A DNA stretch of 64,000 nucleotides from Candidatus Krumholzibacteriota bacterium (GCA_963764625.1 CAVXTH010000009.1:864001-928000), one strand, 5' to 3'; shown: positions 9,734 to 30,094, counted from the stretch's first letter. The notes: generated by a model not told the origin, from the sequence alone. Program-made: numbers and translations.

Positions 9734-9810
<77 letters not shown>

Positions 9811-16475: not shown

Positions 16476-17897
16476 ATGGATTCCAGGAAGGGACGGATCC
16501 TCATCGCGGATGACGACTCGGGACTGCGCGCGATGGTGCGGCAAGTCCTGGAATACGATGGCTTCGAAGTGGTCGAGGCCGAGGACGGTCCCCATGCGCT
16601 AAGGGAGCTGCGCAAGGGAATCTGCGAAGTCTTGTTGCTGGACGTCAAGATGCCGGGGATGGACGGCTTCGAGGTCATGAGCGCGATGCAGAGCGAAGGC
16701 CTCGATGTTCCGGTGGTGGTGATCTCCGCGCACGAGGCGGTCTCCAACGCAGTCGAAGCGATCCGGCGCGGGGCCTACGACTTCCTGGAAAAACCCTTCA
16801 AGCGGGAAGCGCTGAAGGTGCGGGTCCAGAAAGCGCAGGAGCACATGCGCCTGAAGCGGGCGAACCGGGAACTGGCCGAGTCTTCCGCCCGCGGCGGCGA
16901 GATCATCGGGGACGGCCCCTCCATTCGCCACGTGAAGGAACTGCTCGAGAAAGTCGCGCCAACTCCGGCCAGAGTTCTCATCACCGGAGAAAACGGAACC
17001 GGCAAGGAGCTCCTGGCCCGAGCGATCCACATGCGGTCCTCGCGCGCCAGTGGGCCGTTCGTGGAATTGAACTGCGCTGCGATTCCGGGCGATCTCATCG
17101 AGAGCGAACTCTTCGGTCACGAGCGCGGAGCCTTCACCGGAGCCGAACGCCGTCGGCTGGGCAAGTTCGAGAGGGCCGACCGCGGGACGATCTTCCTGGA
17201 TGAGATCGGGGACATGAGTCAGGCCGCGCAGGCGAAGGTCTTGCGCGCGTTGGAGACCTCGACCTTCGAGAGGGTCGGAGGGCAAGATCTGATCCACGTG
17301 GATGTCCGGGTGATCTCGGCCACGAATCGGGAGCTCCAGAATGAGAGCTCGGGTTTCAGGGAGGATCTGTTCTATCGACTCAACGTCATCCAGATCCACC
17401 TGCCTCCTCTGCGGGAACGCCCGGAGGACATCGAGGGTCTCTTCCTCCACTTCCTCAGGATCGCGGCACTGGAGATGGGACAGAGAGTGAAGGGGGTGGA
17501 CGATGGGGTGCTCGAGATCCTGAAGCGACAGCCGTGGCGGGGGAATATCCGTGAGTTGAGAAATCTGGCCGAGCGCCTGGCCATCGTGGCTCCGGACGAA
17601 AAGATCCACGAGGCGGATTTGAGCGTGCTGGCCGGGAGTGAGGCCACGAAAGGCGAACACGAGGACGTGTTCGCCAGCTCCACCTTCAACGAGTTCAAGG
17701 CGGCCAGCGAAGCCCTGTTTCTGCAGGGAAAGCTGCGGGAGTTCAGCTACAACGTGAGCCGAACCGCCGAGGAGCTGGAAATGCAGCGAAGCAATCTCTA
17801 TAAGAAGATCCAGCGCTACGACCTCGGACCTCCGGCTGAGCGATTTGTCCGGGGGCGCTTGACCCCGTGCACTGGAGCTACGTATTGTGTACACTAG
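16476..17897 (+). CDS. Sigma54-dependent response regulator (NtrC/NtrX family: REC-AAA+-HTH); true stop may be slightly earlier
   Basis: ILIADDD, LLDVKMPGMDG, GENGTGKE, ELFGHERGAFTGA, FLDEIGD, FREDLFYRLNV, HTH. Confidence 0.95.
   Translation: MDSRKGRILIADDDSGLRAMVRQVLEYDGFEVVEAEDGPHALRELRKGICEVLLLDVKMPGMDGFEVMSAMQSEGLDVPVVVISAHEAVSNAVEAIRRGAYDFLEKPFKREALKVRVQKAQEHMRLKRANRELAESSARGGEIIGDGPSIRHVKELLEKVAPTPARVLITGENGTGKELLARAIHMRSSRASGPFVELNCAAIPGDLIESELFGHERGAFTGAERRRLGKFERADRGTIFLDEIGDMSQAAQAKVLRALETSTFERVGGQDLIHVDVRVISATNRELQNESSGFREDLFYRLNVIQIHLPPLRERPEDIEGLFLHFLRIAALEMGQRVKGVDDGVLEILKRQPWRGNIRELRNLAERLAIVAPDEKIHEADLSVLAGSEATKGEHEDVFASSTFNEFKAASEALFLQGKLREFSYNVSRTAEELEMQRSNLYKKIQRYDLGPPAERFVRGRLTPCTGATYCVH
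17859..17888 (+). promoter_or_regulatory. Putative sigma70 promoter for the small secreted-protein gene
   Basis: TTGACC-N18-TATTGT about 105 nt upstream of ATG 17993. Confidence 0.45.
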
Positions 17898-17992
17898 ATT
17901 TGGGCAAGGGCCCGTGTGAGCGGAATTGGTCTGCCGTAGGCGATCGGGAGCTGTCGGCCAACGCCGACACGATTGCCTGAGGAGATTTGATC

Positions 17993-18343
17993 ATGATCAG
18001 CAATAGGAAAGCCCTGACGATCGTAAGCGCTCTCTTGATCTTCGCGACAGCGTGGCTGGTGACCCCGGCCAGCGCGAAGGAAATGAGTCTCCGAATCGAT
18101 GCGACCGACGGCGCTACATCCTACTCCGGCTCCGGGTAAGCACGACTGGGGGCGGCGGAAGTTTCATCAAGGGGACTCCGACGACGGAGAACGGAGATCC
18201 CGATGAGCTGACCGGAGGCAACCTGTCGGTCTGGGCTCCGACCAGCCCGAGCTTCGCAAGATTCGTCCGTGCTGGTGAGTCTTTGGCGGGGACTGGTTAG
18301 CTGGATCCAGGGCAGTGCAAACCGATTCGTGGAGGCACGCTAG
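17993..18343 (+). CDS. Small secreted protein / putative signalling-peptide precursor (48 aa to TAA 18139 as written; about 117 aa if homopolymer frameshifts are corrected)
   Basis: GAGGAG RBS; MISNRKALTIVSALLIFATAWLVTPASA signal peptide (ASA/K); continues across frames as VSTTGGGGSFIKGTPTTENGDPDELTGGNL...SVLVSLWRGLVSWIQGSANRFVEAR. Confidence 0.7.
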
Positions 18344-18419
18344 GACAGTACGAGTTCGAGGAATCTCGCTTTTCTCAAAGCGGTATCTCTAGTTGAACCC
18401 TTCTCGCCCAAGGGATGCC

Positions 18420-21400
18420 ATGCAGGAGTTTCGAGAGGGAGAAGAGGGCCACGGGCCTTCCTCCTCAAGTCCAAGCAATAGCGCTGAAAATCCCGCTCTG
18501 CTGCGGACCGAGCAGGTGGGGGATCTCCACTATGACGGCGCTGCTTACTCCTCAGCCATGGAGTATTACCGTTCTGCGCTCCGCAGCGGAGCGGAGTTGA
18601 GTAACGTGCCCGCCGAATCGGTCGCACGACTGCATCGCAAACTCGCCGATTGTTTTCTCCAACAGGGACTCCCCAGCGAAGCCGCGCGCGAACTGGGCCG
18701 GGCCGAGAGGCTTCTGCCCGACTCCGCCGGTCTCGCGCATGCCGTACTGCGGGTCCGTAGGGCCCTGGTGTGCTTTCGGCAAGGCCGGTACCGCAAGGCA
18801 CAGGCACTGGCCATGGAGGGGTTCAGGGAGCTGGCGACCTCCGACCGTCACCGCGAGGTCGGAAACGCCCAGATGATTCTGGGAAACTGCGCCATGCGGC
18901 TCGGGCGCCTGGAGAAAGCCGATGAGTTCTTTCAAGACGCGCTGGCCACCTTCCGGCGCGTGGACCTCCCGCTAGGACAGGCGCAGGCGCTCATCAACCT
19001 CGCGACTCTGGCCAAGAACGAATGCCGTTGGGCCAGCGCCCTGCAGCTCTTTTCCAAGGCGGAGGCCATCGTCAGAGATCGCGGACATTCTCACGAGCTC
19101 GCGGTGTTGCACAACAGCATGGCGGTGCTCTATCGCAAGATGGGACGCCGGGCCGAGGCCATGGCTCAGGTGGAACGCGGTCTCGAGTTGGGCCGCAATC
19201 TCGGCGATCAGAGTCGACTCACGCGCCTGCGCCTCTTGAAGGGGCAGATCCTGGTGGATGAGGGTCGCTTCGCCGAGGCCGAACAGAATTTGCTCGAGGC
19301 CCGGGTCCTGGCGGAGCGGAGACAGACCGGCCGTGATCTGGCACTTGCGGACGAGTTCTTGGGCGACCTCATGGCAGCGCAAGAGCGCTTCGAAGAGGCC
19401 GAACTCAACTACCGTCTGGCCGAAAAGCGCGCCCAGGCCATGGGTCCCGCCACCGACATCCAAGCCGAGGTTCTCAGACGCCGCGCCGAACTCGCGCTTC
19501 GTCAGGGCGACTCGAGCCGGGCCCTCTCCCTGGCGAACCAGGGCATCCGCGTCGCCGAGGCCTGTGGTGAACGCTTCGAGCTACCCTTCTTCGAAAGGGT
19601 GATCGGTCTCGCGCTCGCCGGGCGCGGGGAGTATCAGCCCGCCCGCGACGCGCTCGAATCGGCTCTGGCGCGCGTGAGTGAATACCGTCTTCCGGTGCAG
19701 ATGCGGAGGATCCTGCGGGACCTGGCCCATCTACACATGCGGCAGGAGGGCCGCGAGTCGCTGCTTCTGGCTCGCACCCGGTTGCGGGAAGTGTCGGAAA
19801 TCGCCGACGAGAACAGCGAGTACTCCCCCTGCCAGGTTCAGTTGGATCTCGCGCGCGTAGAGTTGAACCTGGGCGAGTTCGATGAAGCGCTCCTCGCGCT
19901 CTATGAGCTCGAGCGACTGTCTTGCATGGGAAGTCACGATGAACTCGCGCGGGACGTCCAGGCTCTGCGATCTGAGATCGAAGACGCCCTGTCCCAGGAC
20001 GCGGAGGACATCTCCTCGCACTATCAGGCTCTGGCGGATCTGCCCGAACTTCTGGATGGCGACAAACCGGACGCCGAGCGCAACTTGAGAACCATGCTGC
20101 TGGCTTTGGCCGATCGCCTCGCGGCGGATCGCGCGTTCTTGGCGATCCAGGAGGGCGACGGCGTCCCGCGGATTCTCTCGAGTCATCATCTGCCGCGCGG
20201 ACGGGCCGCGGGCATTGCGCGCCACGTGCTTTCTCTCTTGGATGCGGCCAGTGGTCCCAGAGTGTGGACGAATCCGCAGGCGGACGCGGCGTGGAGCGGG
20301 CTCGGCGCGGAGGAATTGCGCGAGATCCAGACCGCGGCGGCCCTCTCGCTGGGACGCTCCGGTACCCTTCAGGCCCTCATGTACTTCGACTGTCAGCCTC
20401 GCAAGGGGGCCCGGCGCGGCTTCAACAACGAAGCGCTCGCGGTGGCCGCGAGCTACGTCGAGCTCCTGCGCGCTCCGATCTTCGATCTCGCGCGCGGAGG
20501 ACGGGCCGCTACGGGCAACCGCGCGTTCCTGCTGGAAGAGGCCTTCGAGAACATCATTACCGAGAGCGACGCGATGGTGGAGGTCCTTCGTCTCTGCGCG
20601 AAAGTCGCGCCGACGCCGTACTCGGTTCTCTTCACCGGAGAGACGGGAACCGGCAAGGGCCTCTTGGCCTACGCGGTTCATCGCTTCAGCCCGCGCGGAC
20701 AGAAGCGCTTCGTCTCCTTGAACTGCGCGGCCATGCCGGAGAGCTTGCTCGAGAGCGAGCTGTTCGGACACGTGAAGGGCGCATTCACTGGAGCCAACCG
20801 GACCCACAAAGGGCTCATCCCGGGCGCCGACGGAGGTACGCTCTTCCTGGACGAGATCGGGAAGATGAGCTTGCCCATGCAAGCGAAGCTCCTGCATTTC
20901 CTCGACAGCAAGGAAGTGCGACCAGTCGGGGGCGGGGAGAGCCAGATCGTCGACGTGCGCGTGCTCAGCGCCAGCATGCGCGATCTGAAAGAGATGGTCC
21001 GGCAGGAACTCTTCCTGGAAGATCTCTACTATCGTCTTCTCGATTTCCCCATCGACGTGCCCCCGCTACGCGATCGCGCGGATGACATCCTCCTTTTGGC
21101 GCGGCATTACCTCGACCGCGTCTGTGGTGAGTTGGGCCGCCCGATTCCCCAGATGACGCGTGGGTTCGCGAGTGGCCTGAGGTCGTACTCGTGGCCGGGA
21201 AACGTTCGAGAGCTGGAGAAGGTGATTCGGCGCGCGGTCATTTTGAGCGTGGGCGAGGATCGCTTGCAGGCTAAGGATCTCCCCGACTCCTGCCGGGGCA
21301 AGCTCGCCGCCGAGGGAGAGGACCAGCCGGTCAATCCCATCCAGCCTCTGAAGGACGAAGTCGCCGAGTTCGAGAAAGTGCTGCTGGAGAGAGCACTCAC

Positions 21401-21503
21401 CAGTTGCGGGTGGAATCGCAGTGAGGCGGCGCGACGCTTGAAAATCAGCTATCCCACCATGCTGCAGAAGATCAAGCGCTACGGTCTGAGTATTCCCAAC
21501 TAG
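18420..21503 (+). CDS. TPR-repeat + GAF-like + sigma54 AAA+ + Fis-HTH enhancer-binding protein
   Basis: Many TPR-like helical repeats (e.g. AQMILGNCAMRLGRLEKADEFFQDAL); GETGTGKG, ELFGHVKGAFTGA, FLDEIG, WPGNVRELEKVI, WNRSEAARRLKISYPTMLQKIKRYGL. Confidence 0.92.
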   Translation: MQEFREGEEGHGPSSSSPSNSAENPALLRTEQVGDLHYDGAAYSSAMEYYRSALRSGAELSNVPAESVARLHRKLADCFLQQGLPSEAARELGRAERLLPDSAGLAHAVLRVRRALVCFRQGRYRKAQALAMEGFRELATSDRHREVGNAQMILGNCAMRLGRLEKADEFFQDALATFRRVDLPLGQAQALINLATLAKNECRWASALQLFSKAEAIVRDRGHSHELAVLHNSMAVLYRKMGRRAEAMAQVERGLELGRNLGDQSRLTRLRLLKGQILVDEGRFAEAEQNLLEARVLAERRQTGRDLALADEFLGDLMAAQERFEEAELNYRLAEKRAQAMGPATDIQAEVLRRRAELALRQGDSSRALSLANQGIRVAEACGERFELPFFERVIGLALAGRGEYQPARDALESALARVSEYRLPVQMRRILRDLAHLHMRQEGRESLLLARTRLREVSEIADENSEYSPCQVQLDLARVELNLGEFDEALLALYELERLSCMGSHDELARDVQALRSEIEDALSQDAEDISSHYQALADLPELLDGDKPDAERNLRTMLLALADRLAADRAFLAIQEGDGVPRILSSHHLPRGRAAGIARHVLSLLDAASGPRVWTNPQADAAWSGLGAEELREIQTAAALSLGRSGTLQALMYFDCQPRKGARRGFNNEALAVAASYVELLRAPIFDLARGGRAATGNRAFLLEEAFENIITESDAMVEVLRLCAKVAPTPYSVLFTGETGTGKGLLAYAVHRFSPRGQKRFVSLNCAAMPESLLESELFGHVKGAFTGANRTHKGLIPGADGGTLFLDEIGKMSLPMQAKLLHFLDSKEVRPVGGGESQIVDVRVLSASMRDLKEMVRQELFLEDLYYRLLDFPIDVPPLRDRADDILLLARHYLDRVCGELGRPIPQMTRGFASGLRSYSWPGNVRELEKVIRRAVILSVGEDRLQAKDLPDSCRGKLAAEGEDQPVNPIQPLKDEVAEFEKVLLERALTSCGWNRSEAARRLKISYPTMLQKIKRYGLSIPN

Positions 21504-21704
21504 CCTCGCCCTGACCCATCAATTCTCTTGATAGGCGTTAAGTCCACTGTTCATAGGGCCTTGGTTCCAAGGCTCTTCTCCATCCTATCAAAGAACTTTC
21601 CAACCGAATCCCCGGGCGCGAGGCACCGCGATCCGAGCTGCGGACAGAGCTTGCAACTCATTGAATTCCAATGAGATAGGAATGCCGCTGCACGGCGGAC
21701 TCGC

Positions 21705-21720
21705 TGGCACGGGGACTGCA
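21705..21720 (+). promoter_or_regulatory. Sigma54 (-24/-12) promoter 1
   Basis: TGGCACGGGGACTGCA = GG-N10-GC; AT-rich palindrome CTCATTG-AATTC-CAATGAG (21657-21675) and ATCAA-N5-TTGAT (21518-21532) upstream. Confidence 0.75.
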
Positions 21721-21730
21721 ATGGGGAATG

Positions 21731-22115
21731 GTGGCTGGAGTCACTTAGGCAATCGTGGTCCGGTCGTCCAGTTGGCCCTTGGGGCCGCAAAGCTATCGGA
21801 GGACGGGGTGGGAACGCTCCTCTCCGTCAACCGGCTGAAAGAGGTTGTTTTCCATCAATTCGGTCCGTCGGTTCGTCAGCACGAGGTGGGGTCGGGCTGA
21901 GGATTTCGGCGGAAGCTAGGAAGACAGCGCTTTCACACCGTCCTCCGAAACATCCCATGGGATGCAGTGAGAGAGGTCAAGGAGAGATCCGACACGAGAC
22001 TCCCCGGCATCCAGGACTGGCGAGATCCTGGAGCGGCCAATCAGGGGAATGGTCTGGTGAACCACTCACCGAGATCCTATGGTTGCGAGAGCCGTCCCTG
22101 TGGGACGGCTCTCGT
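21731..22115 (+). ncRNA. Putative sigma54-dependent structured non-coding RNA (about 385 nt)
   Basis: Starts just after the sigma54 promoter; no credible ORF; 23-nt long-range stem 21796-21818/21926-21948; ends in a perfect 13-bp hairpin at 22086-22114. Confidence 0.55.
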
Positions 22116-22354
22116 GCGTCCGGTCCCCACCTCGCGCCGACACCGCAAGCCCTCGGGTTGCGAGCTACCGCCAGCCCCTGAGTGTCTCCTCCCGGAGACG
22201 ATTCTATGTCCCGATGGCGACAACTTCCGCCCCGCAGTCTCCTGGTCTTCATCCTTTCGGAGGGGGGGGGCGGCGTGATTGAGGATTTGAAACCATTGAA
22301 CAACAAGGGCTTATGAGCCTATCCGGGGTTGCAGCCGAGCCGACTCAGAGGCGG

Positions 22355-22370
22355 TGGCATGGCGGCTGCG
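22355..22370 (+). promoter_or_regulatory. Sigma54 (-24/-12) promoter 2
   Basis: TGGCATGGCGGCTGCG = GG-N10-GC, 55 nt upstream of ATG 22425; IHF-like CAACAAGGGCTTA and TGTC...GAC palindromes upstream. Confidence 0.65.
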
Positions 22371-22424
22371 AGGCATGGGGCAAGGGACGGGGATGCGGAG
22401 GGCCTTCGGACGAAGGAGAGAGCC

Positions 22425-23363
22425 ATGAACAGAGCCAGCAACAGACAGTCTCGAGCCCGCCGGTGGCCGCTTTCGAGCGCGGTTCTGGTGCTCTCGCTCG
22501 CGCTCTTGGGCCTCCTCTTCGCGGGATGCGACGAGAACGACGATCTGGTGGACGTCACGCCTCCGGCCATTCCCAACGGGGTGAGTTCGATCACCGGGGA
22601 TTCGGTACTGTGGGTGATCTGGAACGCCAACCGCGAGCCCGATCTGGCCGGTTACCGGGTCTACTCCACCACCCAAGTCGACGGGAATTACGATCCGGTG
22701 AACTGGCAGCTGCTGCTCGAGGTGGGCAGCCCGTTTCCGGACATCCCCAACCTGGTCAGCTACGAACCCAATGCGAACGAGGGAAAGCCCTATCTGGTCT
22801 TCGAGGATCACACCGTCGACAACGGCTATGACTACTATTACGCGATCAGCGCCTTCGACGACGCGGGCAACGAGAGCGCTCTCTCCACCGACTACGTGGT
22901 GGACACTCCGCGGCCGGAGGGCGAGATCACCCTCAGCGCGGCCAGCGTGGATTCCTCGCGCGCCGGATTCGACTTCAGCGAGGAGACGAGACGGTATCCG
23001 GCCGACGTGTTCAGCGATTGCAGCTTCGATATCGTCAACGGAATCCCTCTCTTCACGGCCCAGGCCCCCTGGGTGAGGATGCAGGATTATGGGGACGTGG
23101 ACTTCGACACCGCCAGCTGGGCTCCCGAGTTCGGCTGGTCACAGGCCGGCGTGATGGAGGCGATCGAAGGTCACAGCTACTTCTTCGAGATCGTAGATGG
23201 GCAGCAGCTCAACTACGCCAAGGTTTTCGTGGAGACCATTTCGCAAAACAACGGCACGATTAAATTGATGTGGGGCTACCAGCCCGTCGAGGGTCTACCC
23301 GAGCTCAAGCGGCCTCAGGCGGCTCTTCCGCCGCGAGGTTCAGGGAAGGAGAGCTCACAATGA
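22425..23363 (+). CDS. Lipoprotein with FN3-like domain
   Basis: Lipobox FAG/C; PPAIPNGVSSITGD...WNANREPDLAGYRVY...YYYAISAFDDAGNESALS. Confidence 0.82.
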   Translation: MNRASNRQSRARRWPLSSAVLVLSLALLGLLFAGCDENDDLVDVTPPAIPNGVSSITGDSVLWVIWNANREPDLAGYRVYSTTQVDGNYDPVNWQLLLEVGSPFPDIPNLVSYEPNANEGKPYLVFEDHTVDNGYDYYYAISAFDDAGNESALSTDYVVDTPRPEGEITLSAASVDSSRAGFDFSEETRRYPADVFSDCSFDIVNGIPLFTAQAPWVRMQDYGDVDFDTASWAPEFGWSQAGVMEAIEGHSYFFEIVDGQQLNYAKVFVETISQNNGTIKLMWGYQPVEGLPELKRPQAALPPRGSGKESSQ

Positions 23364-25511: not shown

Positions 25512-28500
25512 ATGACCTTCAGCCGCGGGTCTTGGGCCGCTCTGGCGCTCCTCACCCTCCTCCAGCTTCCGCTCTCTCCCGAGGTGGCGGCAAGCACCGA
25601 AACCAGGCCGTGGTTTCAATCCTCATCCCCGGCTTCCGCGATAGCCACGCGTCAGCTTCTCGCACGGGCCTCTCGCCCCATGCGCTTCAGCGGCGCCAAG
25701 CTGAGTCAGATCGACGCCTTCCAGTCGCACAAAGCGCCCGCCCTACTACGCATGCTCGTAGTGGGGTGCGACTTCTCCGACAGTCTGCTCTGGGGGCGTG
25801 ACCGCTCGCAGTTCGTCGGTTGGCCGGCTCCCGCCCGCCAGGGAAACTTCCTGTTCAACGACGAAGGAAAGGCGATCACCGACGCACAGGGGAATCCCAT
25901 CTACGAATTCGCCGCGCACGATTCCACCTACTTCGACCTCCAGATGCGCAAGACGGCGGACTACTTCACGACCGTCTCGCAAGGGACGTTCGACTTGCAG
26001 TGGCAGGCCCTGTCGACGCTGGTGAACCTGCCCGAGCCGATGGGTTACTACGGCGCCGACCAGGACAACAACGATCGGTTGGTGGAGATGGCCAAGGCGG
26101 TCGTGGAGGCGGTCGATTCCGAAGTGGATTTCAGCAGCTTCGACACCCTCGTACTCGTCCACGCCGGGGCGGGACGCGAGACGGATATCAACAACGACAG
26201 CCCCCAACAGCTCTTCTCGAACTATCTCGACCGTCGTGATTTCGAACAGGCCATGGCGGACACCGTATTGTCCGAGCCGGGAATCCCCACTCAAGACGGC
26301 GTGTTGATCCGCCACGTTCTCATTCTGCCTGAGTCGGAAACCCAGGACCCGGTCGTCTCCCTGGGTCTCAACGGTTTCTTCGGGATGCGTGGGGTCTATT
26401 GCTTCGAGGTGGGTCTGCGACTGGGGATGCTCAGCCTGGCCGATTTCACTCCCTCGGGCCGTCCCGACAGCCAGGGCATCGGGAACTACGGCCTGATGGG
26501 GTATGGGCTGTTCACCGGCTTGGGGATCGTGCCGGCCGAGCCGTGCGCCATGAATCGCATGCTCATGGGTTGGGTGGATGCGGTCGAGATCGACTCGGAC
26601 AGCGCGCGTCGAATTGCCTCCCATCGAAACCGGAGTGGGCGACACGCTTCTGGTCAAGGTGCCCATCACCGACCGCGAGTATTTCCTCCTCGAGTATCGC
26701 CTGCAGGATCCCGACGGGAGCTTCACCTTCACTTTCGACGACCTCAACGGAAATCGGGTGCCCGATTTCTACGACGCGGACAGCGACAGTCGATCGGAAT
26801 TTTCTCAATGGACAGCCGAGCTCGACCTTCGATCCCGCCACCGACACCTGGGAGAGCACCCAGGGGGCGGAGTGGGATTTCTTCATGAGCGAGTTTCCGG
26901 TGGAGGACTCGGATGGTCCGGGTAGGGGACCGGGGCGGGGCAACGGACTCTACGTGTGGCACATCGACGAGCGGGTCATTCTGGAATCGTCTACTCGCCG
27001 GCACGAACGACATCAACTCCGATCCCCATCGGAAGGGAGTCGATCTCGAAGAGGCGGATGGAGTCCAGGATCTCGACACTCTCAAGGCCTCTCGCTTTCT
27101 CTTGGGATGGGATCGCGACTGTTTTCGTGGGGAGGGAGTGCTGATCGGAGATGAGCTCTTCGGCACTCGCTTCGCGGACGACACGCTTCCCAACGCCCTG
27201 AGCGCCGACGGCGCCTCGATCGGGTTCTCCATCAGCGAAATCGACAGCGTGCAGTTGGGGGTCGAAGGCTGCGCCGTGGGACCTGACTGTCCTTTGGGCG
27301 GACGCTTTACCTGTACCGCGATCGCCTGGGCTTCACTCTCGGCTTCGCCCGGCCCTGCACGCTCCGGGGGTAACCCTCGCCGCGGCACAAAAGCTCGACG
27401 CGGACGGACCTCGCTACGAGGTGCGTCTGGCCGACCTCGACGGAGACGGGCGGCCCGAGATCCTGCTCGCCGGCGATCAGGGTGCGCTGCTCGCCTTCCA
27501 CGGCGATCTCACTCCCTGGCAGGCCGGGGCCGATCCTCAAAACCCTACGTGCTCGCGCGCGCCATGGGGCAAGACGGCCCCCCGCAGTGGCTGGGGGCCC
27601 CCGTGATCGGAGACCTGGATGGCAATGGCACTCCGGAGATCTTTCTCAGTGCGCGCGACGGGGTCTACGCGTTCGATCCCCAGGGGAATGAACTGCGGGA
27701 TGGCGACGCGAATCCCTCGACTCTCGGTCTGTTCTTGCTCCCGCCCGCACTCGACGCCGAGCCCACCGAGCTCTCCCACCCCTGCCTTCTCGCTCCTCAC
27801 GACGGTGACCTCGCGGTCTTCTCCCCGGTCGCGCGTGCGGACCTGGTCGTGATCGCGCGCGGCAAGCAGGAGGGGGCCAAGGTGGGCGCGAGTCTGGTGG
27901 AATGGGACGGCGTGAGCCAGCCCACCGTGCTCACCTCCTCGGACCGCTCGGACGGGACGGCACGCCGTGGCGTCCTGAGCCAAGGATCCACCGGGGCACT
28001 CTATCTGTCGGTGGGTGGGGGGATCCCGCAGAACTTCTCGGGGCGGATCCTGCTGCGCCCCCCCGCAAAAGCGGCCAAGGCAGCGTTCACTCCTCCGCCC
28101 CCGCCGATCGTGGAGACGCCTTCGGTGCTCTTGAGCATTCGTCTCCGCGGCGACGGGATCTACGATCTGGTGATGGTCGACACCCTGGGAGTCCCCCGAG
28201 TGCCGCTGGCGACGCACGGAAGCTCACTTCCCTCTCCCTGGTCGGCTCTGGTGGGAGGGCCGGAGCGGCAGAACGGCGCTCCTGTCCTGGCGCTGGCGGC
28301 GGGGGATGCGCTCTGGCTCCTGGACCGGAATCTCTCACAAAGGTCCGACGGCCCCTACCGGCCATCCTATTCCACCGCGCAACTGCAGGGCGGAGTTCCC
28401 GCCGCTCCTCTCCTGGTGGATCTCGATGGCGACGGGACGGTGGAGGCGATCTGGCACGATCGGGTCGGGCGGGTGCACGCGGTCGACCTGAACTCCCGGA

Positions 28501-29069
28501 GTCTGCCCGGATGGCCGTGGCAGGGTCCCGGCGAACCCTCGGGGTCGCCCGCGGTGGGCGATGTGAACGGCGATGGCAGCCTCGAGCTCGTTCTGGCGTC
28601 CGGATTCGACGCTCTTTTGGGGACGGACGCGGATGAGCGACTTCCGCTCACTCGGCGCATCGGTGAGCTGCGGGTGTATGCACTCCAGATTCCGAGCACG
28701 CGTTTCGCTCCCTGGACTCAGGGAGGCGCCAACGCCTGGGGCACGGGCCATCAGGCTCTCGCTTCGAGCGCCAGCGCGGCCGTCTCCGGCGGCGAGGCGT
28801 TCAGCAACGGGGATCTCTTCGTCTATCCCAATCCAGTAGATGGTCCTAAGGTCCATCTGCGCGTCCGGCTGAGTCGTACGGCCCTGGTGAGTTCGAGCAT
28901 TTTCGATCTCCAGGGACAGGTCGTCCGGCAGACCGGAATCATCCGCGGCGAAGGACCCGGCCAGTTGGAGTTCGAGTTTTCAGTGACCGGTCTCGCGGCC
29001 GGTCTGTATGTGGCCAAAGTGGAAACGGAGGGCAGCGTGGCCCTCAAGCCCTTTGCTCTCGTGCGATGA
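25512..29069 (+). CDS. Secreted M6/immune-inhibitor-A-like protein with degenerate Zn motif, FG-GAP repeats and T9SS/FlgD-like C-terminal domain (multiple frameshifts)
   Basis: LVLVHAGAG, GIGNYGLMGYG, EYFLLEYR, GLYVWHIDE, GVDLEEADG, GDLDGNGTPEI/DLDGDG/GDVNGDG repeats, YPNPV...GLAAGLYVAKV. Confidence 0.75.
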
Positions 29070-29161
29070 GCTGGTGGACTTTGCCAAGGTCCGCGCGAGA
29101 GCTGTATACTCAATGCTCGAATCCGTGCCGCGCAATCGGCCTGAACGGTTGGGAGAGCTTC

Positions 29162-30094
29162 ATGCGCAATTCCTCGTGTATCGCCCTCGCGGCGCTTTTC
29201 ATTTTCCTGGCGAGCGTGCCTCCCTCGTGGGCAGGGAATCCAGGAGATGCCGGCTTTCTGTCCTTGAGGATGGGAATCGGCGCGCGCAACGGCGCGATGG
29301 GCGACGTTGGGGTGGCCGAATCGACCGGCGCCACCGCGATGTACTACAACCCGGCCAATCTCGTGTACACCTCAGGTACGGACGTCACTCTCCAGCACGT
29401 CGAGCACTTCAGCCTCTTTCGCCAGGAGGCGGCCGCGATCAGCCACCGGCTGCCCCGGGGCGCCGTAGGGCTCATCTTCAGCGGCTTTTACGTAAATGAT
29501 GCCATCCCCTTGACCACTCTGGATCGCATCGGGGTTTCCCAGGGCGATTTCCAACCCTACCAGCTCGCGGTGGGTCTGGGTTACGCCTACCAGTTCCACG
29601 ATTTCTCGCTGGGATTGGTGGGAAAGTTCCTCTACGAGCGCATCGAGTCCTACGGCGCGGCGGGCCTGGCGCTCGACTTCGGGATCAGCCATCGCAGCAA
29701 GATTCCAGGTCTCACCCTGGCCGCCGCGGTCGCCAATCTCGGCGGCCAGATGACGGTGAAAGAGGAGCCCTACGATCTTCCGTTCACCACGCGTCTGGGG
29801 GCCAGCTATACCCCCCACACCGAAGGGAAGGGACTCGCCCAGAACCTCACCCTGGCCACTGACCTGGTCCTGCCCAACGACGGAAACGGGCGGCTCCACG
29901 TGGGAGGAGAACTCCGCCTCCATTCCAGTTTCGCGGTGCGGGCCGGATATCGCTTCAACTACGATACCTACGGGCTCACCGCCGGCTTGGGCTTTCACAC
30001 GGGGAATTTGACGGTGGACTACGCGTTCATGGACAACGGAAACGAGCTCTCGGACGACCACCGCATCTCGCTGTCCTTCGCGTTCTTGCCGTAG
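29162..30094 (+). CDS. PorV/PorQ-family outer-membrane beta-barrel (T9SS shuttle-like)
   Basis: FLSLRMGIGARNGAMG, AMYYNPANL, alternating beta strands, C-terminal HRISLSFAF. Confidence 0.85.
   Translation: MRNSSCIALAALFIFLASVPPSWAGNPGDAGFLSLRMGIGARNGAMGDVGVAESTGATAMYYNPANLVYTSGTDVTLQHVEHFSLFRQEAAAISHRLPRGAVGLIFSGFYVNDAIPLTTLDRIGVSQGDFQPYQLAVGLGYAYQFHDFSLGLVGKFLYERIESYGAAGLALDFGISHRSKIPGLTLAAAVANLGGQMTVKEEPYDLPFTTRLGASYTPHTEGKGLAQNLTLATDLVLPNDGNGRLHVGGELRLHSSFAVRAGYRFNYDTYGLTAGLGFHTGNLTVDYAFMDNGNELSDDHRISLSFAFLP

Follow-up and report, generated by a model that had tools for sequence, protein, structure and literature searches.

Introduction

Several small RNAs (sRNAs) that depend on sigma-54 adjoin the gene of the bacterial enhancer-binding protein (bEBP) that activates them, namely Qrr (LuxO), GlmY (GlrR), NrsZ (NtrC) and Pxr (Nla19). 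They are about 100-230 nt in length and fold into simple stem-loops, and most of them need Hfq or a known protein partner. Another group, represented by OLE, GOLLD, ROOL, raiA and HEARO, comprises lineage-restricted RNAs of several hundred nucleotides with multi-helix covarying folds and invariant loop or junction nucleotides, and none of these five is known to be marked by conservation of a sigma-54 promoter together with fixed synteny with a bEBP gene. Among bacterial RNAs, large ones with a complex conserved fold are uncommon, and they have historically proved to be ribozymes, riboswitch-like sensors or ribonucleoprotein (RNP) scaffolds. Here we describe a putative structured non-coding RNA, predicted at positions 21731..22115, in a 64,000-nucleotide stretch of DNA (the window) from a Candidatus Krumholzibacteriota bacterium (GCA_963764625.1 CAVXTH010000009.1:864001-928000), where it lies between a bEBP gene and an operon linked to the type IX secretion system (T9SS).

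The closest known system is crcZ-cbrB, with a resemblance of layout only: crcZ is reported to lie immediately 3' of cbrB, the gene of its activating bEBP (PMC5113210). Like CrcZ and CrcY of Pseudomonas, which depend on CbrB and sigma-54, the Krumholzibacteriia RNA adjoins a bEBP gene, has a sigma-54-type promoter, extends over several hundred nucleotides, has a putative terminator of its own and would be the output of a bEBP circuit. By contrast, CrcZ carries several A-rich AANAANAA motifs binding Hfq/Crc, whereas such motifs are few in the Krumholzibacteriia RNA (median 0) and Hfq was not found in its genome; it displays instead a heavily covarying fold with long-range helices and single-copy invariant loops, and no Rfam match. 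Compared with Qrr, GlmY, NrsZ and Pxr it is larger and more intricate, has no homology to them (Rfam searches were negative), and is flanked by a pair of bEBP genes upstream and by a second sigma-54 promoter downstream. With OLE, GOLLD, ROOL, raiA and HEARO it shares large size, covariation, restriction to a lineage and a function that is not deducible from sequence, again without an Rfam match. The RNA forms a new family, predicted from its locus to belong to the known kind of bEBP-linked, sigma-54-dependent regulatory RNAs, with a fold much more elaborate than those of its analogues.

A conserved sigma-54 promoter precedes the RNA

The intergenic stretch of interest spans ~920 nt, from the stop codon of a 1036-aa bEBP gene (18393-21503) to the next credible ATG at 22425. 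The original prediction had placed in it a sigma-54-dependent structured RNA of ~385 nt, and every sequence feature that it named was found at its coordinates. Conservation of the promoter in 69/70 homologues, covariation in both domains, the lack of a conserved reading frame and the lack of an Rfam match bear this prediction out, and we consider it very probable that the gene of a structured RNA is real, has a sigma-54-type promoter and is transcribed as a unit of its own.

In a DNA search of 60 relatives, similarity begins at the TGGCAC of promoter P1 (query position 205-206), and a GGYAY-N6-7-YGC element is located 108-131 nt 5' of an invariant ACCGGC anchor in 69 of the 70 homologues; the lone exception to the conserved -24/-12 element (G083) has TTGA instead of TTGC. 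The strict sigma-54 motif has just 24 occurrences on both strands of the 3.57-Mb genome, and both P1 (21705) and a second promoter P2 (22355), downstream of the RNA, are among them. The genome encodes RpoN (Sigma54_DBD, 217.9 bits at C9:980674), so that canonical -24 GG/-12 GC spacing, the sigma factor and two upstream bEBP genes (16476-17897 and 18393-21503) are all in place, from which we infer that transcription of the RNA is sigma-54-dependent.

The sequence upstream of P1 shows three elements of presumed function. A hairpin followed by a T-rich stretch after the bEBP stop codon has clearer equivalents, with T runs, at the same place in relatives. Further downstream lies an AT-rich candidate upstream activating sequence (UAS) for P1, and similar CTATNAA..TTNATAG or TGTAAA..TTTACA elements were seen by eye at about -105 to -125 in relatives. 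The palindromic element at 21655-21680 forms a conserved block in the nine-sequence alignment described below and in relatives, and by the IHF consensus it may be an IHF-like site.

Compensatory changes support a large fold on the plus strand

The plus strand of the RNA was predicted to fold with -182.5 kcal/mol (z = -4.77), a stability reached by 0 of 100 shuffled sequences. Since the minus strand departs from chance almost as far (z = -4.35), stability alone does not set the strand. In a plain MAFFT alignment of nine family members, RNAalifold predicted 83 pairs, among them those of the long-range helix and the terminal hairpin, and compensatory changes occur at 38 of the 83; the same alignment shows invariant blocks, the conserved -24/-12 element, and indels of 1-2 nt that are not multiples of three.

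For the 5' domain we built the covariance model R1 (205 positions, 54 pairs), and sequences were then aligned by fitting to a model. Two-sided changes occurred at 47 of the 54 pairs in an alignment of 30 sequences (A4), with 88.7% of cells paired as against 41.5-54.5% with slid partners, and at 49 of the 54 in an alignment of 72 sequences, 65 of them distinct (A6; 88.2% paired, 42.5-53.8% slid). The 3' hairpin behaved likewise, with two-sided changes at 11/11 pairs among 63 sequences, 59 of them distinct (A5; 87.4% paired, 20.8-51.6% slid). None of 500 shuffles reached any of five measures in A4 or A6, while in A5 22/500 reached the count of varying pairs and 0/500 the other four measures.

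Numerous G-U pairs appear in A4 when it is read as the plus strand, and R1 scores the locus at 213.9 bits on the plus strand versus 17.7 bits on the minus strand. Combined with the direction of P1 and with the T-rich tails that relatives carry behind their last hairpin, these results indicate that the RNA is encoded by the plus strand. Protein coding was rejected, as no frame is stop-free in more than 9 of the 63 sequences, in line with the earlier statement that the interval holds no credible coding sequence.

The individual helices proposed in the original prediction fared well for the most part. Both strands of the 23-nt long-range helix (21796-21818/21926-21948) are present and upheld by compensatory changes in relatives, as are the CCAGGA hairpin and the terminal hairpin, the latter lacking a U-tract as described, and aligning the homologous intergenic regions brought out conserved covarying structure with RNAalifold as well as in the model-fitted alignments. 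The CATCCC/GGGATG hairpin is present too, while it is common to only the two closest relatives.

Anatomy and boundaries of the RNA

The start at 21731 is predicted from promoter geometry, 12 nt past the C of the -12 GC at 21719, and the end is taken from the terminal hairpin, which would give an RNA of about 385 nt here and of about 310-385 nt in relatives. Coordinates of its parts and of the flanking features are collected in Table 1. Within the 5' domain a long-range helix closes a junction with three inner elements, and a variable stretch separates the 3' hairpin from the terminal hairpin. The RNA exposes three unpaired motifs that are invariant, ACCGGC, the GGUGGGG loop and the GGCGAGA loop, each occurring once per RNA.

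Table 1. Features of the RNA locus; positions are counted from the first nucleotide of the window.
Feature	Position	Strand	Basis or remarks
Second bEBP gene, response-regulator type	16476-17897		Receiver, sigma-54 AAA+ and HTH_8 domains
TPR-bEBP gene, 1036 aa	18393..21503	+	N-terminal tetratricopeptide repeat (TPR) region, AAA+ sigma-54 interaction domain, Fis-type helix-turn-helix (HTH); Pfam, NCBIfam
Terminator-like hairpin GCCTTGG-TT-CCAAGGC, then T-rich stretch	21558-21573	+	Sequence reading, inverted-repeat scan; presumed role
AT-rich inverted-repeat-like element	21585-21602	none	~115 nt 5' of the -24 GG; candidate UAS for P1
Palindromic, presumably IHF-site-like element (TAACTCATTG..CAATGAG)	21655-21680	none	Between candidate UAS and P1; putative role
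Promoter P1, sigma-54 -24/-12 element TGGCACGGGGACTGCA (TGGCAC-N5-CTGCA)	21705-21720	+	Motif and conservation
Structured non-coding RNA	21731..22115	+	Predicted start; end at terminal hairpin
Variable 5' leader	to about 21795	+	
5' domain, modelled by R1	21746-21951	+	Helix map, covariation
Long-range closing helix	21797-21817/21927-21947	+	5' domain
CCUC/GAGG hairpin (21819-21828/21833-21844)	21819-21844	+	Invariant ACCGGC at 21830-21835
Inner junction helix	21848-21853/21919-21924	+	
Stacked hairpin	21864-21913	+	Helices 21864-21871/21906-21913 and 21876-21884/21892-21900
Invariant 7-nt loop GGUGGGG	21885-21891	+	Caps the stacked hairpin
Linker	21949-22004	+	Specific to the window's own family
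Small hairpin CATCCC/GGGATG, CATCCCATGGGATG	21951-21964	+	
3'-domain hairpin	22005-22037	+	Covariation; 9-nt loop with invariant GGCGAGA (22019-22025)
CCAGGA-N9-TCCTGG	22011-22031	+	
Terminal 13-bp hairpin	22086-22114	+	Presumed intrinsic terminator, no U-tract; covaries within the family
GC-rich palindrome TGTCTCC-N4-GGAGACG (22183-22200), then TGTC	22183-22210	none	3' of RNA terminator; conserved
Promoter P2, sigma-54 -24/-12 element TGGCATGGCGGCTGCG	22355-22370	+	~55 nt 5' of the next ATG
Gene of 312-aa lipoprotein-like protein	22425..23363	+	First operon gene; no Pfam or NCBIfam family
PorV/PorQ-like gene	29066-30094		3' of the protease open reading frames

The RNAs of the sister family are shorter, with a median of 320 nt from the predicted start to the T-tract, and their closing helix, AAAGAGCC/GGCUCUUUC, doubles as the terminator. 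A crude scan found a hairpin with a T-rich tail in 55 of the 63 sequences, this genome not being among them, and at least three of these 55 matches (G002, G003 and L105) do not represent a true terminator.

Comparison with known RNAs

A gathering-level scan of the whole window with Rfam release 15 returned no match at the RNA, and searching 21450-22500 at E values up to 10 yielded chance rows only (mir-149, E 1.5; MEG8, E 5.6); the loci of eight relatives gave nothing at E up to 1. The housekeeping RNAs are encoded elsewhere in the genome with scores above their cut-offs (RNase P 301 bits, tmRNA 158, 6S 55.7 and signal recognition particle (SRP) RNA 77.8). A divergent RNase P, tmRNA, 6S or SRP RNA was rejected on these two findings, and the earlier impression that the hallmarks of tmRNA, RNase P and SRP RNA are missing proved correct. 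No published description of this RNA was found in searches limited to titles and term matches, and a term search of a 2026 language-model preprint on non-coding space yielded no mention of sigma-54, RpoN or Krumholz.

Two families of Krumholzibacteriia carry the RNA in single copy

The DNA search of 60 relatives detected the region in 8/9 other genomes of the window's own family. Using R1 with stricter Infernal filters, we obtained one match per genome across the class: f1, the family to which the window belongs, was positive in 9/9 genomes and f2, a sister family of Krumholzibacteriia, in 20/43, as compared with 0/98 genomes of seven other families. Phylum-wide counts were 8/8 for f1, 25/61 for f2 and 0/81 in other families. 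With filters off, all three non-matching f2 genomes that were tried gave weak matches in the syntenic position (G025, 31.9 bits; G010, 18.4 bits; G015, 12.4 bits), indicating that the misses of the strict filter in f2 at least partly reflect sensitivity rather than absence.

An exact-pattern scan with one genome per species retrieved nine records, six from Candidatus Krumholzibacteriota/Krumholzibacteriia, two from 'uncultured bacterium' and one from Streptomyces. The Streptomyces record (L023) is not matched by R1 and was rejected as a chance match. The same kind of pattern scan in metagenomes found 50 loci, 41 of which match R1 at E <= 0.001; the nine loci above this value (L081, L089, L096, L104, L106, L115, L116, L120 and L121) were excluded from the alignments. 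Together, these sequence searches point to a new RNA family, so far confined to two families of Krumholzibacteriia and present in a single copy per genome.

Contigs from RNA libraries cover part of the RNA locus

Twenty sequencing runs hold a small share (0.10-0.20) of sampled words from the locus, and ten of them are RNA runs. Contigs from four RNA runs, one per run (X3, X4, X6 and X8), are 227-303 nt in length, differ from the window by 2-6 nucleotides, and cover positions 21750-21982, 21751-21986, 21748-22050 and 21750-21976. They leave 21500-21747 and the region beyond 22050 uncovered, which is uninformative. The contigs give only a weak hint that the RNA is made.

Fixed gene order around the RNA

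A homologue of the TPR-bEBP gene lies immediately 5' of the RNA in 29/30 genome loci, the thirtieth being truncated by a contig end, and a homologue of the downstream 312-aa protein lies 3' of it in 28/30, the two others ending at a contig edge; both neighbours flank the RNA in 27/30 loci, and contig ends truncate the remaining three. The response-regulator bEBP gene is found 5' of the TPR-bEBP gene in 10/10 further genomes retrieved. Judged from these loci, the gene order is fixed as bEBP gene, RNA, and second sigma-54 promoter with the T9SS-linked operon.

Between the RNA and the downstream gene a sigma-54-like motif occurs in 59 of the 63 sequences, P2 being positioned about 55-100 nt before the downstream ATG across relatives. 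A palindrome related to the GC-rich one past the terminal hairpin was found in 47/59 sequences, 135-253 nt 5' of P2, and none upstream of P1; we infer that it is a candidate enhancer (UAS) for P2. Given that putative terminators bracket the RNA while the operon has its own P2 and palindrome, the RNA looks like its own transcription unit.

A genome of a third family (f3) keeps P2 and the downstream gene, and both the bEBP gene and the RNA are absent within 1.3 kb upstream. The RNA therefore looks like an addition made in two families only.

A trans-acting RNA and its alternatives

The locus order is response-regulator bEBP gene, small secreted-protein gene, TPR-bEBP gene, RNA and sigma-54-driven T9SS-linked operon. 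In the model that we prefer, sigma-54 RNA polymerase would transcribe the RNA from P1 and would need an enhancer-binding protein for this, the likeliest candidates being the two bEBPs with genes just upstream, and transcription would stop at the RNA's own terminal hairpin. The RNA would then fold into a 5' domain closed by the long-range helix plus the 3' hairpin, presenting its invariant loops to a partner, and would act in trans while being co-induced with the neighbouring sigma-54-driven, T9SS-linked envelope operon. Taken as a whole, this reading of a stand-alone structured RNA, driven by sigma-54 and a bEBP and serving as the trans-acting regulatory output of the bEBP locus, has in our judgement a somewhat better than even chance of being right. 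Its trans-acting part is suggested by the poor fit of sponge mechanisms and by pairing with the 5' untranslated region (UTR) of the operon at chance level, as detailed below. For the partner, rough estimates put a protein (as decoy target or within an RNP) first at less than even probability, something else slightly behind it, and loop-mediated pairing with mRNA last of the three.

Several points weigh against this reading. Model-fitted alignments are biased towards the modelled structure, and the slid-partner control also favours a structure derived from the same sequences; the independent MAFFT/RNAalifold alignment nonetheless yielded the same helices. The invariant loops show no variation, and therefore tertiary or intermolecular pairing by them is beyond the reach of covariation. 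The start and the end of the RNA are predicted positions, and the terminal hairpin is without a U-tract in this genome and its genus, so that read-through toward P2 would be possible. The RNA-library contigs reveal neither starts, ends nor strand, and RNA libraries may contain DNA. No partner of the RNA was identified, and the activator of P1 could be either of the two bEBPs. Finally, predicted duplexes between the RNA and the operon 5' UTR were no better than those with shuffled targets (median z = -0.04, 57 sequences), and these duplexes had unrealistically long loops.

Among the alternatives, a base-pairing sRNA that uses its G-rich loops GGUGGGG and GGCGAGA as Hfq-free seeds for C/U-rich mRNA sites survives best, though we think it unlikely. 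Qrr and NrsZ, both of them sigma-54-dependent sRNAs, work through pairing, loop-mediated pairing is known from large Gram-positive regulatory RNAs, and the most conserved unpaired bases of the Krumholzibacteriia RNA are indeed located in hairpin loops. Neither Hfq (PF17209) nor ProQ/FinO (PF04352) was found in the 96.4%-complete genome, and thus such pairing would have to be chaperone-independent. However, no target was found, the adjacent operon 5' UTR pairs at chance level as noted above, the full GAGGTGGGGTC motif occurs only three times in the genome (a count of the motif itself), and the long-range helices and multi-helix junction exceed what seed presentation needs. The missing ProQ/FinO, together with the failure to find Ro/TROVE (PF05731) in the same genome, also led us to reject a Y RNA/Ro RNP or a ProQ-dependent sRNA.

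Another possibility is a cis element of the operon, either as a long leader or attenuator or through transcription from P1 across the P2 enhancer region that would bring about interference or insulation. That the RNA lies on the same strand directly 5' of the same operon in every locus not truncated by a contig end (27/30) is compatible with this possibility, as is the location of the candidate P2 enhancer just past the terminal hairpin, and the lack of a U-tract behind the terminal hairpin of this genus leaves some room for a cis role. We nevertheless find a cis element quite improbable, given that the operon has its own sigma-54 promoter close to its ATG in 59/63 sequences, that most relatives carry T-rich tails past the last hairpin, that the f3 genome keeps P2 and the gene with no RNA seen in the 1.3 kb upstream, and that interference alone needs no such covarying structure with invariant loops. 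A riboswitch or 5' leader of the operon was rejected for its part, since P2 and the conserved palindrome intervene between the RNA and the gene.

About as improbable as a cis element is a circuit of a new type, in which the RNA would be the effector of a signalling system. Peptide sensing by TPR regulators is known in Gram-positive bacteria, and if the TPR domain recognises the secreted protein whose gene lies between those of the two bEBPs, an uncultured phylum would have a quorum circuit that resembles LuxO/Qrr and responds to a peptide. Its output would be a large, intricately folded RNA rather than a simple sRNA, and this RNA would work as part of an RNP, as a sensor of a ligand or as a catalyst.

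Largely refuted, and in our judgement very improbable, is a sponge that binds a protein at several sites in the manner of CsrB/RsmZ or CrcZ. The layout speaks for it, as a bEBP gene followed by a sigma-54 promoter and an RNA of ~400 nt recalls crcZ (PMC5113210). The original prediction had raised Csr/Rsm sponging as a possibility from 'many GGA triplets', yet the GGA count of the RNA, 13 versus 12.6 +/- 3.2 expected, is at chance level. Median counts per RNA are 3 for ANGGA and 0 for AANAANAA, the latter with a maximum of 2 (63 sequences). CsrA (PF02599) was not found in the 96.4%-complete genome, whereas control genomes give matches. A Csr/Rsm sponge was rejected on the grounds of chance-level GGA, few ANGGA and no CsrA found, and a CrcZ-type Hfq/Crc sponge on the grounds of few AANAANAA motifs and no Hfq found. 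In addition, no repeated motif was seen, each invariant motif being single, and no Rfam match to the CsrB, Rsm or CrcZ families was obtained. The reading without any RNA gene, in which DNA-level regulator sites or a small protein-coding gene would account for the conservation, is the least credible of all: although the region has a sigma-54 promoter on either side along with several palindromes, and this genome offers ORFs (open reading frames) of 74-103 aa, compensatory changes preserve helices with strands up to ~130 nt apart, G-U pairs and model scores are strand-asymmetric, every frame has stops in at least 54/63 sequences with indels that are not multiples of three, and RNA-library contigs cover the region.

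With respect to the preferred trans-acting RNA, the locus would add a case outside the Proteobacteria of a bEBP gene beside a sigma-54-dependent RNA gene, here tied to a T9SS-linked envelope operon. The RNA is unusually well anchored for uncultured organisms by its promoter type, presumed terminator, single copy, strict synteny and 65 distinct covarying sequences. With sigma-54 and a bEBP apparently required for its transcription, a heterologous host would allow both inducing signal and regulon to be studied, sparing the culturing of a Krumholzibacterium.

Further features of the neighbourhood

The 312-aa protein encoded by the first operon gene has 255 homologues at E <= 1e-5, almost none of which has a Pfam domain (one row, PF00041). 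They are widespread in candidate phyla such as WOR-3, Latescibacteria and Eisenbacteria and are named 'hypothetical' or 'fibronectin type III'. The family thus appears to be widespread and uncharacterised, and here it would be under sigma-54 control.

Later genes of the operon encode a DUF4384 protein, pieces of an M6-like inactive protease with a T9SS sorting domain, and a PorV/PorQ-like protein. The ORFs 25512-26888 and 26913-29069 match positions 75-328 and 838-1027 of 1043 in one NCBIfam model, a T9SS-dependent M6-like inactivated metalloprotease, and both score far below its cut-off. The two ORFs may be fragments of a split gene or just distantly related to the modelled protease.

A secreted protein of ~100-120 aa with a signal peptide and a GDPDD-x3-GN motif is encoded between both bEBP genes in 10/10 relatives. 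Judged from the ORF listing, the window has the signal-peptide part (17987-18139) in another frame than the motif part (within 18052-18300), which could be due to a frameshift, an assembly error or a pseudogene.

The spacer between the GC-rich palindrome and P2 contains a G-run, GGAGGGGGGGGGCGGCG, and a small hairpin at 22226-22288; it is unconserved beyond the genus and is the site of the mir-149 chance row. The sole gathering-level Rfam match in the 64-kb window is a tRNA gene at 9737-9810 on the minus strand.

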